Below are positions 989 to 16,255 of a stretch of DNA of 41,031 nucleotides, piece after piece. The stretch spans positions 1-41,031 of the IMG/VR virus record IMGVR_UViG_3300043765_000050, one strand, 5' to 3'. The first letter of the stretch is position 1, and every line of letters begins with the position of its first letter. This DNA is from a virus (lineage: Duplodnaviria; Caudoviricetes). Under the pieces are notes generated by a model. The model worked only from the letters and a program-made list of their open reading frames with translations. It made no database searches and had not been told where the DNA came from. A program made the translations under genes and the position numbers.

Positions 989-1213
989 ATGTCACGCAAA
1001 CGGCGGACGCTCACGCTGCGCAAAGCCAAGCGGAAACCGAAAGGAGTACCGATGCCTACTGAAGCCGCACCACAGCCGAAGACCCCGGAACCACCACAGC
1101 CGAAGCCGGGATCCCCGCCACCGCCTCCCGGGACTGACCCGCATGCCGTGCCACAGGGACCGACTACGGAAAAGGAGGAAGAGGAGGAAGAGGAAGGGAC
1201 GCCCGGCGCATGA
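989..1213 (+). CDS. Low-complexity protein (basic N-terminus, Pro-rich middle, poly-Glu); alternative start at 1052
   Basis: AAGGAG precedes ATG 1052; the stop overlaps the ruvC ATG. Confidence 0.55.
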   Translation: MSRKRRTLTLRKAKRKPKGVPMPTEAAPQPKTPEPPQPKPGSPPPPPGTDPHAVPQGPTTEKEEEEEEEGTPGA

Positions 1214-1731
1214 GTGAATTGGTGATTGGTATTGACCCGGGGCTGACGGGCGCGCTCGCCATCCTCGGGCCGTCCGGGGAAGTCATCACGCTGGCGGATC
1301 TGCCGGTTTCCCGCAGTCCCGGCAAGCTGACGTGGCTGCACGGTGCGGCGCTGCACGACATTCTGGTGACGCACATCACGGGGCAAACGACAGCGGTGGT
1401 TGAGGTGGTGCATGCGATGCCGAAGCAGGGCGTGTCGTCCACTTTCACCTTCGGCTGTGTCTACGGATCGTTGCTGGCGGTGCTGCAGGTGCTGCACGTC
1501 TCGATTCACCTGATATCACCCTCGATCTGGAAGCGGGACTTGAAACTGATTGGCAAGGACAAGAAGGCTGCGCTCGCCAAGGCCCGCCTGCTATTCCCCA
1601 ATGCTGCACTGCCGCTCGCCAAGCATCACGGGCGCGCTGAAGCGCTGCTCCTCGCGACGTGGTACATGCAGACCTTCCCGCAGCCAAAAAAAACCCCGGA
1701 CGTACCGGGGTTGCCGGAAGCGATTGCATAA
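1210..1731 (+). CDS. ruvC: RuvC-like Holliday junction resolvase
   Basis: Motifs IGIDPG, VVE...MPKQGVSSTFTFG, P..WKR and GRAEALLLA are typical of phage RuvC-like proteins. Confidence 0.9.
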   Translation: MSELVIGIDPGLTGALAILGPSGEVITLADLPVSRSPGKLTWLHGAALHDILVTHITGQTTAVVEVVHAMPKQGVSSTFTFGCVYGSLLAVLQVLHVSIHLISPSIWKRDLKLIGKDKKAALAKARLLFPNAALPLAKHHGRAEALLLATWYMQTFPQPKKTPDVPGLPEAIA

Positions 1732-2712: not shown

Positions 2713-2790
2713 GGGTTCTCTCCTGATCTTGTGGACGTTATAGCCCCCCCATGGAAACATCTTTACATCTTGATCACCTCCATGTTAGGA

Positions 2791-2861
2791 AGGTGCGGGG
2801 CCGGATTCGAACCGACGCAAACGGGTGCACATGAGTTCCCATTCGCTACCTAACCCGCACC
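2791..2861 (-). ncRNA. tRNA-fMet-like, D-armless RNA with an expanded 12-nt CAU-containing anticodon loop
   Basis: Minus strand reads GGTGCGGG TTAGGTA GCGAATGGG AACTCATGTGCA CCCGTTTGC GTCGG TTCGAAT CCGGC CCCGCACC T. This gives an 8-bp acceptor, a 9-bp stem ending in GGG/CCC, and a canonical 5-bp T-arm with TTCGAAT loop. There is no D stem and no encoded CCA. Confidence 0.8.
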
Positions 2862-2950
2862 ACAAACCAAACTACTACCATCACGATCAGCAGCCCGACG
2901 CCGATGAGAATATATGCGCCTAGAATGGCTTGCTGTTTCTCGTTAAGCAT
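2846..2950 (-). CDS. 34-aa single-TM peptide (MLNEKQQAILGAYILIGVGLLIVMVVVWFVVRVR)
   Basis: TGATG coupling to the upstream gene; one hydrophobic helix; the last codons overlap the tRNA-like RNA. Confidence 0.6.
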   Translation of the reverse strand: MLNEKQQAILGAYILIGVGLLIVMVVVWFVVRVR

Positions 2951-6385: not shown

Positions 6386-6891
6386 CAGCGTGACTCCCGC
6401 AGTGCCTTGTTGACCGCCTGCGCGATCTGCGGGCCCGGGGTGACGGGAGGCTTCAGGATATCGATTAGGCCACGCTCGTACAGTTGCGCGACCGTGATGC
6501 CGTCCATCATGCCCAGCCCCTTCGCCAGTGCCCGCAATCGTTCGCAGGACACTGTGGTACCTTCCTTCGCCAGCAACTCCCACAGTTTGAACACCTTGCT
6601 AGCCACCTGCCGCGGCGAATTGTGATGCCCTGTGTTAATGCGGAACTGGCGGCCCTTCACGGTCAGCGGTTTGCCGTCATGCTCCGGTGAGGTGTTCCAG
6701 ATGCGCAGGTTGTCGCGGTTATGTACAGCCACCGTACCGTTACCCCTGCGGGCCTTGTGCGAGGTAGCAGCAGGGGCCTTGGGATTCAGGGACGCCACCA
6801 GCGCACGCTGCAGGTGCTCCATAATCAGTTCCTGCAGTTCCGCCGGCAGTGCCGGGACTATCGCGTTCCAATCAAGTTTCAATTCGTTCAT
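6385..6891 (-). CDS. Hypothetical protein (MNELKLDW...)
   Basis: AGGAG SD and GCACATGA start context. Confidence 0.75.
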   Translation of the reverse strand: MNELKLDWNAIVPALPAELQELIMEHLQRALVASLNPKAPAATSHKARRGNGTVAVHNRDNLRIWNTSPEHDGKPLTVKGRQFRINTGHHNSPRQVASKVFKLWELLAKEGTTVSCERLRALAKGLGMMDGITVAQLYERGLIDILKPPVTPGPQIAQAVNKALRESR

Positions 6892-7222
6892 GTGCATCAA
6901 CTCCTACAGTGCGGACAGGGAATGACTGCGCCCGCTCCAGTCGTTTCAATTGCTTGTCGATTTTTGCGATGGCGTTATAGGCTCTGCTGGCCTTTCTGCG
7001 CCACGCTTCCCGCCGGGATATCAGAGTAGCCATGCGTTGCAATTGCCGCGCTGACAGGCTGTGCGTGGCTGTGGCGGGCGGTTTGGCGCTAGCATCCAGT
7101 GTCCCGCCTTCCGGCCATGCCTGTGAGCCTGCCTTGACTTGCCCTGCCTTGCCTTTCCACGCCTTGCCGGCGCCTACGGGTTTACGCTTCACGACGCGCC
7201 TCCTCTTCCCGTTCCGCTTCAA
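6872..7222 (-). CDS. Basic hypothetical protein (start uncertain)
   Basis: Fills the gap in the operon; Lys/Arg-rich with a helical C-terminus. Confidence 0.5.
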   Translation of the reverse strand: MKRNGKRRRVVKRKPVGAGKAWKGKAGQVKAGSQAWPEGGTLDASAKPPATATHSLSARQLQRMATLISRREAWRRKASRAYNAIAKIDKQLKRLERAQSFPVRTVGVDAHERIET

Positions 7223-7415
7223 TGGAATTGATAGTCTCGATGAGCCGTTTCAGTTCATCGCGAAGAAGTCGCGCGTCGGCTTTACTGAGATAGATGCGGC
7301 TGATGGAATTCGCGACCGTGCCCCAGCCCGTTGAGATGGTAACGGCAACGTCTGCGCCAGCACGATGTACCTGAAGGTTGCCGGTACCCGATTCGAGTTT
7401 CATGGGAGCCTTCAT
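7182..7415 (-). CDS. Hypothetical protein
   Basis: GGAG SD and GCACATGA start; ATGA overlap with the upstream gene. Confidence 0.7.
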   Translation of the reverse strand: MKAPMKLESGTGNLQVHRAGADVAVTISTGWGTVANSISRIYLSKADARLLRDELKRLIETINSIEAEREEEARREA

Positions 7416-7657
7416 GTGCGGTTCACTCCCGGGCGCGTGTCGTGCAGTTCCTCGAAAGTCACCTGCATAGGCAGATCGTCGCGGATGCGGGCGATACGGG
7501 CACCGATCACGATCTGGTTGCAGGTATCGCAGCAGCGTCCGGTATTGATGGGCCGCGCATTGTTACCCCAGCCCACATAACGCGTACCGCAGATACTGCA
7601 GGTCTTTTCCATGTCACCACCGCGAACCGGCAGTTCCAATTTAGTCACGTCAGTCAT
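7412..7657 (-). CDS. Small Zn-binding protein (CxxC...GNN.xP...CCxxC)
   Basis: CSICG..GWGNNARP..CCDTCN; GGAG SD and GCACATGA start. Confidence 0.75.
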   Translation of the reverse strand: MTDVTKLELPVRGGDMEKTCSICGTRYVGWGNNARPINTGRCCDTCNQIVIGARIARIRDDLPMQVTFEELHDTRPGVNRT

Positions 7658-7693
7658 GTGCGTTGCTCCAAGTTATAAGTTAGGTCCAGCTTC

Positions 7694-8174: not shown

Positions 8175-8626
8175 GATTGCACCGCCTGCAGCAGATCCGC
8201 CGCCGTGAACACTGCACCACCCGGACACGGGCCCTTCGGTGCCGGCTTCGGGCTCGTCACCTTGGTACCACCGCCACCGTTGCCGTTGTCGCGGTGATCC
8301 TCCGTGCCGACCGCTCGCCCCAGCATCAGAGCCGCCGCGTAACCGCGCACCGTGTCCGCTGCGGGGCCGTTGTACTCACTCATGTAGTACCCCAGCGCCT
8401 GCAACGTATCGGCAGGGAGCGCGGCTAATGAGCCCTCAACGCGGAACACCTGCCGGCGGAGTTTGGCGCGTGCAGCTTCAGGATCCCGGCTGCGGTCGGT
8501 CACGTCGTACCCCTGCCGGTAGCCCGCGAGCGCGCAAGTGGACAGCAGGTGCACTTCGACACGATCAGGGAAGGTGAGAAAGAACGTCCCGGGCATGAGC
8601 CGCGGGGAATCAGCATTGGCTTTCAT
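8171..8626 (-). CDS. Hypothetical protein
   Basis: AGGAG SD and GCACATGA start. Confidence 0.75.
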   Translation of the reverse strand: MKANADSPRLMPGTFFLTFPDRVEVHLLSTCALAGYRQGYDVTDRSRDPEAARAKLRRQVFRVEGSLAALPADTLQALGYYMSEYNGPAADTVRGYAAALMLGRAVGTEDHRDNGNGGGGTKVTSPKPAPKGPCPGGAVFTAADLLQAVQS

Positions 8627-8664
8627 GTGCGTATCACTCCTAGAGGGGGGTTGCCTGTATCCCT

Positions 8665-8712: not shown

Positions 8713-9735
8713 TCAGGCGGCGACCTTCACCTGCGTCAGCAGCTTGTAGGCCCGGGCCTTGAGTGCGGCTGCGTCACCGAACATATTGGAGGCCACGCGG
8801 GCCGCATCCGAACCATCCCCCGCTGTGTCGCGCACTGTCTTGACGTGCGTGGCGTAGAAGGTGACAGCGTTGAACGCACCCCACTTGGTGCCGCGGACCG
8901 CTCCGGGGGCATTGGTGTAGGCGTCGGTAAGCGCGCGGACGGCATTTTCGGCACGGGTAGACAGAATCGACGAGCCATCAGGCCGCGTCACGCCCAGCTT
9001 GCTGATGTCGATTTCCAGCACCTCACCGAAGAACGTGACCAATTGCCGCGGAGTCATCTCGGTCGCTGCCATCTTGTTGAATTGCTCAACCACCAGCGCA
9101 CCGCCCGCCCGGGCACGCTCGACAAGCTGCACCAGTTCGCGGGGATTCAGGATCTCGGTGCTGGCGCGGATGCTGCGCAGGTAACCGTCCCGGCCTGCCT
9201 CACCGACCGCCGCGTCGTAGGTGTTGTTGCAGACCACGCGAATGGTACCGGTGAGCGCCTTGGTGCCGTGCTGCTTGTCGTAGCCGGTGGCGAGGGTGAT
9301 GTAGGGACGGAGGATATCGTTGCCGACGCGCATTTCCCCCGGGACTTCCGCGCAGACCACGATGATGCGACCGCCGCGAAGCGAGCAGCCGTGCGTGATT
9401 TCCATCTCATTGGCCGCCAGTGCATCGCGGAAGGCCTCAAAGATGTGGACTGGCTGGCGGTTCGTGAGGTGGTAACGGTCATCCGAAGTCACCGACAAGG
9501 CTTTGCCGTTGTCGGAGCGGAACTGCCCTGCGTAGCCGGGCACCTCTTTGTACCAAATCTCGCCCGCCTCGCTGACCATCTTGCGAAACAGGGTTTCGGA
9601 TTTCACCGTCCACGGGCAGCACAGGGCCGCGATTTTGTCGGGCTCTTTGCGGATCTCTTTCGGGATGCCGATGCCCTTACCCGTCCAGCCTGCGCCAGCG
9701 GAGCCGAAAACTGCAGTTTCAATATTGTCGCTCAT
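8713..9735 (-). CDS. DUF932 family phage/plasmid-like protein
   Basis: W...G, G.L.GG...., L.TGYD, IRVVCNNT and GTKWGAFNAVT.Y..H motifs; first gene after the leftward promoter; TGCACATGAG start context. Confidence 0.85.
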   Translation of the reverse strand: MSDNIETAVFGSAGAGWTGKGIGIPKEIRKEPDKIAALCCPWTVKSETLFRKMVSEAGEIWYKEVPGYAGQFRSDNGKALSVTSDDRYHLTNRQPVHIFEAFRDALAANEMEITHGCSLRGGRIIVVCAEVPGEMRVGNDILRPYITLATGYDKQHGTKALTGTIRVVCNNTYDAAVGEAGRDGYLRSIRASTEILNPRELVQLVERARAGGALVVEQFNKMAATEMTPRQLVTFFGEVLEIDISKLGVTRPDGSSILSTRAENAVRALTDAYTNAPGAVRGTKWGAFNAVTFYATHVKTVRDTAGDGSDAARVASNMFGDAAALKARAYKLLTQVKVAA

Positions 9736-9786
9736 GTGCATCGTCCTTCTGTTACTGGGTCGGCGTGATTGCTTCCCATGGGTTGT

Positions 9787-9815
9787 AATCTACTCTCGAT
9801 TAAACCTCATGTCAA
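9787..9815 (-). promoter_or_regulatory. Leftward sigma70 promoter (PL-like)
   Basis: TTGACA (9815-9810), 17-nt spacer, TAGATT (9792-9787). Confidence 0.75.
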
Positions 9816-9870
9816 GTTTCCTTTACTCGTTGCACATATGGACGCTGAGGTGAGGTATGCTGCTGGAACT

Positions 9871-10128
9871 ATGAAAACCGCTGACGCACTCGCGTTCTAC
9901 AAAGACAACGGAGCTACACTCGCCCGCGCCGCCGGGGTAAGCCGACAGGCGATGTATCAGTGGGGTGAGTACGTGCCGGAAGCGGTAGCGCGACGGCTCG
10001 ATGAATTGACCGGCGGCAGGCTGGCGTTCAAGTCCGACGATTACGTGAAGGTGCGCAAAGCTTTCCGCCGCCTGCAGGCCCGCAATAGGTTGAAGGTGGT
10101 CAAGTCACAGTCTGCCCGGGACGGGTAG
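9871..10128 (+). CDS. cro: Cro/YdaS-like HTH transcriptional regulator
   Basis: MKTADALAFY..GATLARAAGVSRQAMYQWGEYVP...L..LT.G.L is a classic Cro-like pattern; divergent from PL; TATGCT lies 9 nt upstream, suggesting a nearly leaderless mRNA. Confidence 0.8.
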   Translation: MKTADALAFYKDNGATLARAAGVSRQAMYQWGEYVPEAVARRLDELTGGRLAFKSDDYVKVRKAFRRLQARNRLKVVKSQSARDG

Positions 10129-11230: not shown

Positions 11231-11263
11231 AAAAGAAAAGGCCCCAAGCAGTGCTTAGGGCCT
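11231..11263 (-). terminator. Rho-independent terminator of the second leftward operon
   Basis: AGGCCCTAAGCA-C-TGCTTGGGGCCT followed by TTTCTTTT, just after the stop at 11296. Confidence 0.85.
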
Positions 11264-11651: not shown

Positions 11652-12029
11652 TCAATCGGTGAGAGATAGGCCGGACTGCTGGGCAAGGTCAGGGTCAAAG
11701 CCGGTGACGGCGCGGCCCGCGAACCACTGTATCGGCGTCATCACGCCCCACTGGTACATCTCTAGCCCGGACTGGCTGCGTACCGCGGTGGCAATCAGGT
11801 TTTCAGGATCCTGATCGTCCACCGCCTTGAGCAGATCCCGCAGCATCTCCCGGTCAATGACCAGCTTGTAGAAGCGTGACTTGCCGCGCCGACCGTATTG
11901 CCCCGGGCGCCCGTCCGCCTCAATCACGACGTCATTGAATGCATCAACGGATACGTCGCTGGGCTCGAAATAGAATCGGGTGACGGTATCGGCCTTGCCG
12001 ATATTCAGCTTGGTGATAGTGAGTTTCAT
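11652..12029 (-). CDS. Hypothetical protein
   Basis: GGAGG SD and GCACATGA start. Confidence 0.75.
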   Translation of the reverse strand: MKLTITKLNIGKADTVTRFYFEPSDVSVDAFNDVVIEADGRPGQYGRRGKSRFYKLVIDREMLRDLLKAVDDQDPENLIATAVRSQSGLEMYQWGVMTPIQWFAGRAVTGFDPDLAQQSGLSLTD

Positions 12030-12063
12030 GTGCGTTTCCTCCAATGGGTGACCGGTATGGCCT

Positions 12064-12106: not shown

Positions 12107-12864
12107 TACAGCCCGAGGGATGCCACCAATTGCGCTTCCGTGAGGGCTGCTGAGGCGGTAGGACGGGCAATCGGGGTAACCCGGGGGGTTGGTACAGGGT
12201 CGGCAGGCAAGGCGCTGTAGCGCGTCGCCGCGGCGTCCGTGGTCACCTCGCCCCACGGCTGACCCCAGTGCGCGGCGCAGGTCTTGCCATAGCCCACAGC
12301 GGTTGAGCGGGCATCTGTCAGCGCCAAGCCACAGAACATGCACGAGCCCGACAGCTTGGCGTACTCGCGGGCGACCGTGACAGGATCCGCGGCAAGCCGG
12401 GTCAGCAGGAGCGTGAGTTCCGCCTTGACCGCATGCCCGTCACGCCCGACCTGCAGGTCACCTTGCGGGCTGATGCGGCCAAAGAACCGGGATTGCCCGA
12501 ACGCTTCCCCGTCGGTCAGCATCAACCAGCCGGGTGTGCGGGAGCGGGAACCGGCGAGCGTGATCCGCAGCGCGGTACCGTCGGCGAACTGCAGCCAGAG
12601 CTTGGGGTACTTGAGTCCGTGCGACTGGGCGTGGTTCAGGAGCGTCACGACGCCCGCCATTGCCGGCAGTTCCGGCGGGGCATCCTTGGGGGCTGTGGCC
12701 TTGGCGAGCAGACGCTCAACGAAGGATAGCTGGGCGGGCGAGAGGTAACCGCGGGTGCGGAAACCATACTTGCCACTGATCAGATCATAGGCCTTGCTGC
12801 GGCTGTAGGGGTCAAGGTGCGGCATGGCGGTTTCAAGGGCGTTCACAGTGTCGAGGATGTTCAT
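12106..12864 (-). CDS. DUF6011-like protein with a C-terminal Zn motif
   Basis: CMFCGLALTDARSTAVGYGKTCA matches the CxxCGxxLTDxxSxxxGxGxxC pattern; AAGGAG SD and GCACATGA start. Confidence 0.75.
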   Translation of the reverse strand: MNILDTVNALETAMPHLDPYSRSKAYDLISGKYGFRTRGYLSPAQLSFVERLLAKATAPKDAPPELPAMAGVVTLLNHAQSHGLKYPKLWLQFADGTALRITLAGSRSRTPGWLMLTDGEAFGQSRFFGRISPQGDLQVGRDGHAVKAELTLLLTRLAADPVTVAREYAKLSGSCMFCGLALTDARSTAVGYGKTCAAHWGQPWGEVTTDAAATRYSALPADPVPTPRVTPIARPTASAALTEAQLVASLGL

Positions 12865-12877
12865 GTGCAAGTGCTCC

Positions 12878-13142: not shown

Positions 13143-13259
13143 TCAGCCCCCCATCACGAGGCGCGCGGCCCAGTACATCCACGCGAACACGACGGTGATC
13201 GCGTAACCCGCGAGATAGGCCGACAGCACGCTGCCGACGAGGGAAAGGGTAGTTTTCAT
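13143..13259 (-). CDS. 38-aa membrane peptide (MKTTLSLVG...)
   Basis: CAGGAG SD and GCACATGA start; hydrophobic. Confidence 0.7.
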   Translation of the reverse strand: MKTTLSLVGSVLSAYLAGYAITVVFAWMYWAARLVMGG

Positions 13260-13283
13260 GTGCGATAACTCCTGTGGGTTGTG

Positions 13284-13337: not shown

Positions 13338-13583
13338 GGCGGCAGTTTTGGCGGCGATACGGCTGCGGATTTCGCGGTACTTGGCGACTTCAGCGTCTAC
13401 CCAATCGGAAGCCTTATCCCAGCTGATACGCGGGTAATCGGTGAGAGCGCAGCGCGCCAGCGATTCCAGTTCCAGCGCGATATTTAATTCACCGACATCG
13501 CGGGCTCTGGCGGCACGGATCAGCATGCTGCGAAGAATGTCGTTGACGCGGGCTGATAGCTTGAAAGGGTTGAAGGTGTTCAT
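13335..13583 (-). CDS. Hypothetical protein
   Basis: TAAGGA SD and GCACATGA start. Confidence 0.75.
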   Translation of the reverse strand: MNTFNPFKLSARVNDILRSMLIRAARARDVGELNIALELESLARCALTDYPRISWDKASDWVDAEVAKYREIRSRIAAKTAA

Positions 13584-13595
13584 GTGCGTGGTTCC

Positions 13596-13730
13596 TTAGA
13601 TCAATGAGTGAATGGCGTGAGTGACGAGGTGCAACAGTCCGTGACTGGCGGCAGTAGTGAGCGTGTGCAGGCTGATATGCTTCAGCGTGTGCACGGCCTT
13701 GCTGTGGCTGAGACGGGCTAGCAGTTTCAT
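13596..13730 (-). CDS. 44-aa His-rich amphipathic peptide (not in the ORF track)
   Basis: MKLLARLSHSKAVHTLKHISLHTLTTAASHGLLHLVTHAIHSLI; AAGGA SD and GCACATGA start; its stop overlaps the next SD. Confidence 0.7.
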   Translation of the reverse strand: MKLLARLSHSKAVHTLKHISLHTLTTAASHGLLHLVTHAIHSLI

Positions 13731-13769
13731 GTGCGGTGCAATCCTTGGGTTAATCAGTGAACGAGTGAG

Positions 13770-15327: not shown

Positions 15328-15454
15328 GTGGCTGATAGCGGGTTGCCTGTCGGTGGTGAGTATCCTTGCCCTTTACATCGCATGGCGTGTATGGTGTGAC
15401 TGGGGGAAGCCCGTGTGGCATGAGGGCAGTAAGTGGTGGGGGCCGAATGAGTGA
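15308..15454 (+). CDS. Small single-TM protein
   Basis: MAGVLIKWLIAGCLSVVSILALYIAWRVW; overlap-coupled. Confidence 0.55.
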   Translation: MAGVLIKWLIAGCLSVVSILALYIAWRVWCDWGKPVWHEGSKWWGPNE

Positions 15455-15644
15455 TCCCATGCGGATGAATTACCGGGCGCTGTCTGGTGCTGAGAAGGCG
15501 CAGATGGAGCAGTTGAAGATACAGGCTCAGGAGTTGCACGATTACATTTCGAGTTTAGGTGCCAGTCGGGAGAGCGCCGTCAGCCTTACCCGGCTGGAAG
15601 AATGCGTCATGTGGGCAGTGAAGCATCTGACGGGGCCGAAATGA
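15447..15644 (+). CDS. Acb2/Tad1-like cyclic-nucleotide sponge (anti-CBASS/anti-Thoeris candidate)
   Basis: YRALS.AEKAQM..LK (Acb2-like YRxLS helix) and SRESAVSLTRLEECVMWAVK (SRExSxxxTxLEExxMW hairpin motif). Confidence 0.7.
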   Translation: MSDPMRMNYRALSGAEKAQMEQLKIQAQELHDYISSLGASRESAVSLTRLEECVMWAVKHLTGPK

Positions 15645-15838: not shown

Positions 15839-16029
15839 GTGCCGAGGCTGAGATTGAGGCGATGAGGAAGTGCGCGAGTGCGCTGGGGAGTCTGACGCCG
15901 GAGGCCCGCTTGCGGGTGCTGCGCTGGGTAATGGACTGGAACGCGCATCATGCCCCGCCTTCCCGGGTCGGCAGTGCCTTGCAGGAGACGTTAGCGCGGC
16001 AGGAGCAGGAGGCGATGAATCATGCTTGA
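15835..16029 (+). CDS. Hypothetical protein
   Basis: GTGA coupling; E.EAM..C..AL..L..EAR.RVLRW pattern. Confidence 0.65.
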   Translation: MSAEAEIEAMRKCASALGSLTPEARLRVLRWVMDWNAHHAPPSRVGSALQETLARQEQEAMNHA

Positions 16030-16255
16030 GCTAATCGTTATGGCGGGCCTGAATGCGGGCCCTCCGCTGGTGGTGGAACGTCACGACCGGATGCCGTGGG
16101 CGGCGAAGGAGAGTGAGTGCAACGAGCATCACAATTTGCAGCCCGACGGGGATCACGACTGTGACGATCCGACCGGGGTCACGGAGCCCGATACCTTGGC
16201 GCTGGCGTTGCTGGCGGCGGGGGGAATCGGCTGGTCGCTGCGGCGGAGGAAATGA
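16022..16255 (+). CDS. Small protein with a PEP-CTERM-like C-terminal sorting signal
   Basis: C-terminus VTEPDTLALALLAAGGIGWSLRRRK = VxEP motif + TM helix + basic tail; AGGAGG SD. Confidence 0.7.
   Translation: MLELIVMAGLNAGPPLVVERHDRMPWAAKESECNEHHNLQPDGDHDCDDPTGVTEPDTLALALLAAGGIGWSLRRRK

Follow-up and report, generated by a model that had tools for sequence, protein, structure and literature searches.

The CI RNA of phage P4 and the C4 RNA of phages P1 and P7 are phage RNAs of the same kind, which block translation through the pairing of a loop. For C4, a small RNA, this loop is described as pairing near the ribosome-binding site (PMC12197685), and a title cited in PMC5499578 names the C4 precursor as a substrate of RNase P. 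In cluster K mycobacteriophages, an asymmetric repeat termed SAS is reported in one orientation at the starts of non-structural genes; its function was given as unknown in 2011, and K1 mycobacteriophages are described as carrying one reversed copy that lacks a gene start (PMC3203893). Initiator tRNA, in turn, is characterized by three G-C pairs below the loop and by a 1:72 mismatch used for formylation (PMC5389676), the determinants of which also include an R11:Y24 pair (PMC5389676, PMC9976931). Pairing of tRNA-fMet position 37 with mRNA position -1 is reported to raise initiation in E. coli (PMC10018350).

Here, we analyzed the whole linear virus record of an uncultured soil phage (41,031 bases, 59% GC; hereafter the window), which is rated 55% complete and has a complete relative of 38 kb. 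The same phage is present in three soil metagenome runs. One of these (X1), possibly the source of the record itself, covers the locus described below without sequence differences, while in the other two (X2 and X3) the locus lies outside the contigs of the phage. A cultured relative of the phage was looked for, and none was found.

The minus strand of the window contains an RNA element whose loop is complementary to an 8-bp tag, GCACATGA (GCAC-ATG-A), at the start codons of ten genes. As in C4, the loop is complementary to a translation-start region. However, C4 acts within its own immunity operon, on the ant message, whereas the tag marks ten unrelated genes in two units, the loop covers the AUG itself, and the ancestry of the RNA from tRNA-fMet is clear. 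Unlike for C4 and CI, there is no match to an Rfam C4 model, and no ant, CI, or integrase was found among the window ORFs. As with SAS, the tag occurs in one orientation at non-structural starts with a reversed copy in the RNA (a second copy on the reversed strand lies inside a late gene), but SAS extends over 13 bp that include the Shine-Dalgarno sequence, whereas the tag covers the spacer and the AUG. No tRNA-derived or fMet-derived phage RNA aimed at shared start tags was found in the literature searched (subscription papers and bioRxiv supplements were outside its scope), in keeping with the original prediction that no such phage system had been described.

Structure and ancestry of the RNA

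The element is made up of the following parts, given with the evidence for each.

2791..2861, minus strand: whole element, 71 nt, a D-armless RNA derived from tRNA-fMet (fold and similarity to E. coli tRNA-Met)
2854..2861, minus strand: 5' strand of the 8-bp acceptor stem, its partner being 2799-2792 (fold)
2847..2853, minus strand: 7-nt linker in place of the D arm, with the D-loop GG retained (fold, tRNA alignment)
2846-2838 with 2825-2817, minus strand: 9-bp stem, its inner end formed by three G-C pairs, GGG/CCC (fold)
2826..2837, minus strand: 12-nt loop AACUCAUGUGCA (fold)
2834-2827, minus strand: loop segment UCAUGUGC, the complement of the tag (sequence)
2800..2816, minus strand: T-arm with a 5-bp stem, a 7-nt loop, and one U.G wobble (fold)
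2846..2950, minus strand: 34-aa hydrophobic ORF, the last 16 nt of which overlap the 5' end of the RNA (ORF list)
2763..2781, minus strand: 3' trailer with the extended Shine-Dalgarno-like sequence GGAGGTGATC (2781-2772), then a start-stop ATG TAA (2768-2763), in a hairpin (sequence, fold)

With a predicted energy of -35.5 kcal/mol (z -3.78), the RNA folds better than any of 200 shuffled sequences, which bears out the 8-bp acceptor, the T-arm, and the GGG/CCC-closed 12-nt loop of the original prediction; the sequence likewise agrees with its claim that a D stem and an encoded CCA are lacking. The acceptor consists of eight Watson-Crick pairs with no 1:72 mismatch, and its top pairs (G:C, G:C, U:A, and G:C) resemble the G-1:C73 end of tRNA-His and tRNA-Sec, on which bacterial RNase P is reported to make 8-bp acceptors with G-1:C73 (PMC5499578). 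No other 5-bp T-arm was found on either strand of the 41-kb window. The R11:Y24 pair is absent, as only the 7-nt linker occupies this region, and the GG of this linker is predicted to make an elbow contact with the T-loop. The 9-bp stem is as long as the D stem and the anticodon stem together, and the D-loop GG is preserved in the linker, so that an L-shape is plausible for the modeled RNA. In the minimum free energy structure, the loop forms two weak internal pairs, with the CAU predicted to be fully (1.0) and the GUG partly (0.45-0.61) unpaired.

The overlap with the 34-aa ORF, for which no Pfam match was found, suggests that the RNA may be cut out of a polycistronic message. A 70-aa protein encoded next to the RNA had no Atlas match above 0.81. 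The 3' tail of the RNA is rich in pyrimidines and can fold onto the Shine-Dalgarno-like trailer (2781-2740, minus strand), and the hairpin predicted there could possibly act as a ribosome trap or switch.

The 3' part of the RNA matched tRNA-Met in all ten E. coli records with a match, with 23 of 24 nucleotides identical. The RNA and the E. coli tRNA-Met copies of locus L250 have GGUAGC, GGG, CUCAU, CCC, and the T-arm in common, including the U.G wobble, and part of the acceptor is also alike; compared with these copies, AA is inserted before the CUCAU and GUGC after it. When 476 distinct tRNAs from the fetched loci were ranked by similarity to the RNA, the best 21 were all CAU tRNAs, a result of supporting weight only, as this set was enriched by our own search patterns. 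The initiator hallmark of three consecutive G-C pairs below the loop is present, as is the site of position-37/-1 pairing. At the level of sequence, these comparisons confirm that the RNA derives from tRNA-fMet, as had been proposed.

It has nonetheless diverged from this ancestor: the CAU is present, yet in a loop of 12 nt instead of the 7-nt anticodon loop of an initiator tRNA, the D stem and the CCA are missing, and the 8-bp acceptor is fully paired. ARAGORN and the Rfam tRNA and C4 models, all named in the original prediction, left the RNA undetected at threshold. Neither ARAGORN nor an Rfam scan of the whole window found it, and a local Rfam scan returned tRNA-Sec only, at 20.4 bits (E 0.06) against a gathering score of 47, with no match to the C4 models. 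Judged by its sequence, the RNA would not be formylatable by known rules and is probably not a functional tRNA.

The start-codon tag and the leftward genes

Scans with PHROGs and Pfam (54 and 58 ORFs) assigned a virion block and a resolvase to the rightward strand, and DUF6011, DUF932, ERF, YqaJ exonuclease, and NinB-like genes to the leftward early genes, with the last three in one operon with tagged genes. A Cro-like gene was recognized at 9778-10128. Among the same ORFs, no integrase, CI, or antirepressor was recognized, and neither was an RNA-binding regulator. In addition, the rightward strand encodes an Acb2/Tad1-family nucleotide sponge, an anti-defense protein (15420-15644; Pfam E 3e-14), and a small phage protein with a C-terminal PEP-CTERM sorting motif (16022-16255).

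The tagged starts and the sites that delimit the leftward units are as follows.

13727..13734, minus strand: tag, start 13730 (44 aa), first gene after a promoter-like site
13580..13587, minus strand: tag, start 13583 (82 aa)
13256..13263, minus strand: tag, start 13259 (38 aa)
12861..12868, minus strand: tag, start 12864 (252 aa, DUF6011)
12026..12033, minus strand: tag, start 12029 (125 aa)
9732..9739, minus strand: tag, start 9735 (340 aa, DUF932), first gene after a promoter-like site, 10-nt match
8623..8630, minus strand: tag, start 8626 (151 aa)
7654..7661, minus strand: tag, start 7657 (81 aa), first gene after a promoter-like site
7412..7419, minus strand: tag, start 7415 (77 aa), its ATGA also being the stop of the upstream gene
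6888..6895, minus strand: tag, start 6891 (168 aa)
13798-13770, minus strand: promoter-like site TTGACA-17-TACCTT, upstream of tagged start 13730
9815-9787, minus strand: promoter-like site, upstream of tagged start 9735
7722-7694, minus strand: promoter-like site, upstream of tagged start 7657
11239..11263, minus strand: terminator-like site that closes the leftward unit 13730-11296 (consensus match only)
1692..1712, minus strand: terminator-like site at the end of the RNA-bearing leftward unit (consensus match only)

The tag occurs 12 times in the window: ten times on the minus strand, once in the RNA itself (+2827), and once inside a late gene (+37546). In 100 shuffled sequences, the mean was 2.0 and the largest count 8, so that none reached 12. 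All ten copies on the minus strand coincide with ATG starts that have a GGA(G) 7-11 nt upstream and open ORFs of 38-340 aa. The proposed tagging of ten early genes on the strand of the RNA was thereby upheld, the tag being present at 10 of 24 leftward starts and at none of 30 rightward starts (Fisher p 8e-5, for hand-picked sets of starts). With a crude gene caller, it was found at 10 of 27 starts in the first 20 kb of the window. When the same gene caller was applied to 144 other viral loci, not all of them independent, the largest number of starts identical from -4 to +4 was 4, and the tag itself was found at 3 of 2,728 starts.

The original prediction had placed the RNA at the distal end of an early leftward operon. 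The RNA does lie near the far end of its leftward unit, with about 7 kb separating it from the upstream promoter-like site at 9815, but the tags are split over two leftward units, with five in 13730-11296 and five in the RNA-bearing unit. A tagged gene is the first behind each of the three promoter-like sites, in a promoter scan that did not exceed chance (3 sites vs 5.3 in shuffles). Fourteen of the 24 leftward genes lack the exact tag, and therefore the RNA cannot shut off the whole early region; the recombination and late genes have no exact tag at their starts either. Untagged early starts share a looser ACGC spacer. Tagged starts were predicted to be more open (unpaired 0.66, n=10) than untagged leftward (0.42, n=13) and rightward starts (0.50, n=21; p 0.004), which may merely reflect strong early genes and an A/C-rich tag.

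The loop is exactly complementary to the tag, with the complement directly 3' of the CAU. At start 9735 the predicted 10-nt match was recovered, with a pairing energy of -16.4 kcal/mol, and the other tags range from -13.0 to -13.7 kcal/mol. The exact complementarity on which the original prediction relied holds, but UCAU is inherited from tRNA-fMet, so that only the bases GUGC are informative. These four bases are located where position 37 of tRNA-fMet would face mRNA position -1, and the chance of their match is about 1/189 by composition, a modest figure if many windows were screened. A purine comes next after each of the 14 copies of GCACATG in the window (A 12 times, G twice), and either base can pair with the loop U. 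Position -5 is a pyrimidine in all ten tags, while the loop base facing it pairs with only three. Overall, the sequence comparisons confirm that the tag and its complementarity to the loop exceed chance.

Looser pairings with the loop were also observed. The resolvase start at 1210 (1200-1217, plus strand) gives the best match outside the RNA gene, with ten bases paired, one of them as a wobble, and -17.2 kcal/mol; with wobbles tolerated, the loop also matches the exonuclease start 4830 and two late starts, 34559 and 28021. Such start matches were not counted, as similar energies are reached at many non-start sites.

Homologue searches and analogous elements

Nine records share the capsid protein of the phage at 80-88%. 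The RNA was absent from all ten records examined, in which the tag sequence occurred twice, once, or otherwise not at all. The early regions of the capsid relatives are not homologous to that of the window, except for a few genes in G003, the leftward unit of which ends at the contig edge. Neither the start tag nor such an RNA was found in 17 related stretches, of which two are ERF relatives and two are complete spring phages, and no 7-mer near their starts exceeded four copies. ERF relatives at 37-48% likewise had neither RNA nor tag, the relatives of DUF932 are distant (26-31% identity among the best segments listed), and those of DUF6011, which reach 65%, are proteins without DNA context. 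The joint absence of tag and RNA in relatives gives weak support, at the sequence level, for a link between them. In G003, an identical long start context, GGAGATTCACCGATGAAG, precedes two leftward early genes (L126:2885 and 4831), with the end of the operon beyond the contig. An ERF-related phage (L513:7682-13257) has CC or AC before many early starts, and no T-arm RNA was found in it.

Pattern scans of viral sequences gave 25, 13, and 27 matches, without a homologue. Further viral scans gave at least 120 matches (22 of 64 parts, longer matches inspected) and at least 119 (53 of 64 parts), and a metagenome scan at least 120 (16 of 64 parts), 105 of them of ordinary tRNA length; no homologue was among the matches listed. 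A genome scan gave seven matches, with no homologue among the four inspected, and blastn against phages and plasmids returned short pieces only. The combination of loop and tag is known here from one genome only.

Two low-GC prophage loci (L554:9980-10055 and L558) were found to encode a tRNA-like RNA built in the same way, which lacks the D arm and has a 9-bp stem and an 11-nt loop. It lies at the end of an early/middle operon and scores 31 bits with the Rfam tRNA model, and no matching start tag was found within 20 kb. It can be taken as a control that, by its sequence context, weighs against every such RNA being a guide.

Several other candidates were dropped: a degenerate tRNA cluster with the loop CUCAUGUCC (L490), which has no tag at starts; an initiator-type tRNA of proviruses in which five bases are inserted behind the anticodon (L386, L427, and L464), the complement of which occurs only at the RNA itself; two candidate homologues (L540 and L550); and a T-arm without an acceptor (L120). 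Separately, metagenome contigs contained a family of T-arm-bearing tRNA-like RNAs that do not fit an ARAGORN-type cloverleaf (L270, L288, L299, L304, L315, L317, L319, L323, L360, and L362), four members of which were scanned without an Rfam match.

Among the mycobacteriophages, Angelica was found to have a long hairpin near the right end of its genome, on the transcribed strand, with the reversed SAS copy as its 10-nt loop. The same anti-SAS hairpin loop is present near the distal end in four more K1-type phages. In an alignment of 11 cluster K phages, the loop is unchanged in five (Anayavirus), is a looser pyrimidine loop in three, and is absent in three; in an alignment of six phages, 2 of 22 hairpin pairs change on both sides, i.e., in a compensatory manner. 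Unlike the window RNA, which is tRNA-derived, the hairpin does not resemble a tRNA and belongs to a longer structured element. By analogy, the K1 data support the general idea of a tag read by an antisense loop, though not across cluster K. The right-end region matches 189 mycobacteriophage records, often unannotated. A conserved multi-hairpin element of about 280 nt, mostly unannotated, lies there behind a promoter-like site (L520:28540-28800, corresponding to about 58540-58800 of Angelica HM152764, and L521-L530), and no Rfam family matched it.

Possible roles of the RNA

We consider it somewhat better than an even bet that the remodeled initiator tRNA is an uncharged guide RNA that pairs across the ten early start codons and represses their translation. 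Repression is favored because the tagged starts are already open, which leaves little to activate, and because the RNA would not be formylatable by known rules and is made after the tagged genes. Transcription of the leftward message would reach the RNA late, at the distal end of the operon. Host RNase P would then cut at the 8-bp acceptor, and 3' trimming would release a stable RNA of about 70 nt. Its loop would pair with positions -4 to +4 in an 8-bp helix of about -13 kcal/mol, and AAC would span the groove. The start codon could be blocked by plain occlusion, which we propose tentatively, or by a dead-end initiator complex that the RNA forms in the 30S P site, which we think unlikely; such occupancy is conceivable because the RNA has retained the 9-bp stem, the elbow GG, and the three G-C pairs. 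Negative feedback would then set in with a delay, turning off promoter-proximal early genes while the untagged recombination and late genes remain active. Everything beyond the sequence match in this scheme is what we infer. Against it, a duplex of 8 bp is short, many non-start sites reach the same energy with looser pairing, and the pyrimidine at -5 appears to be a constraint on the tag beyond the RNA. Of the repressor option in the original prediction, repression is thus retained, while its immunity role is not, given that no integrase, antirepressor, or CI was recognized and only a Cro-like gene was. It seems doubtful, though conceivable from the modeled shape, that the RNA is a programmable guide to the ribosome, an L-shaped mimic in the 30S P site that uses an eight-base anticodon to read the start codon and E-site positions and thereby singles out tagged messages to be shut off or, should it be charged, to be initiated privately.

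It is improbable, in our estimate, that the tag has another reader. A phage protein could read it, or it could be a boundary for ERF-mediated gene shuffling, with the loop match arising by chance or as a by-product. The loop leaves the -5 pyrimidine unexplained, the untagged early starts share the ACGC spacer, the same operon contains the ERF, YqaJ exonuclease, and NinB-like genes, and tag-less D-armless RNAs exist (L554 and L558). Such a reader would nevertheless require the 1/189 coincidence to fall exactly 3' of the CAU in the sole T-arm element, no RNA-binding regulator was recognized among the 54 and 58 ORFs, and the fixed register of the tag on the ATG fits translation better than recombination. 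Distinctly improbable is the second option of the original prediction, a private initiator or activator that favors tagged messages through an extended codon-anticodon helix. The reported pairing between fMet position 37 and mRNA position -1 (PMC10018350) would be extended by four bases, to five extra pairs around the AUG against one in the quadruplet-pairing tRNA-fMet; MetRS is described as reading mainly CAU (PMC9976931), the three G-C pairs are kept, and tagged genes come first after promoter-like sites. This role is unlikely because the formylation determinants, including the 1:72 mismatch and R11:Y24, the D stem, and the CCA are absent. In addition, the loop has 12 nt, the acceptor end is His/Sec-like and not Met-like, the tagged genes precede the RNA, which is produced from the distal end of the operon, and the tagged starts are open already.

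Nucleases such as VapC cut tRNA-fMet, and the fMet-like stem, the CAU, and the T-arm would suit a decoy for anticodon nucleases or tRNA-fMet-binding defenses, in a phage that has another anti-defense gene (the Acb2/Tad1 sponge at 15420). Tag-less D-armless RNAs at operon ends in other phages and the strong Shine-Dalgarno-like hairpin 3' of the RNA would also fit an RNase P processing signal. We give either role, acting without pairing to the tag, a slim chance, since both leave the ten tags unexplained and a decoy would be expected to keep a 7-nt loop. That the element is a functionless relic, left by a decayed tRNA gene or an attP site, is scarcely credible: ARAGORN and the Rfam thresholds miss the RNA, no homologue was found, and it overlaps the end of a small ORF, but all three stems pair fully despite differing from tRNA-fMet in both strands of two stems, and no integrase was found.

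To our knowledge, known phage antisense RNAs act on one operon. Under the guide RNA reading, one RNA that addresses ten unrelated genes through an AUG tag would constitute a regulon that needs no protein and would naturally time the switch from early to middle genes. If the RNA is the L-shaped P-site mimic considered above, an orthogonal initiation code would be written into the phage genome. If active in the ribosome, the RNA would show how far the codon-anticodon stretch can reach at initiation and would offer a design for orthogonal translation control. As a P-site mimic, it would also be the tRNA-built member of a wider class of regulons, in which one RNA serves many start tags. Such a class may also explain the SAS of mycobacteriophages, the function of which becomes testable in cultured K1 mycobacteriophages on M. 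smegmatis.
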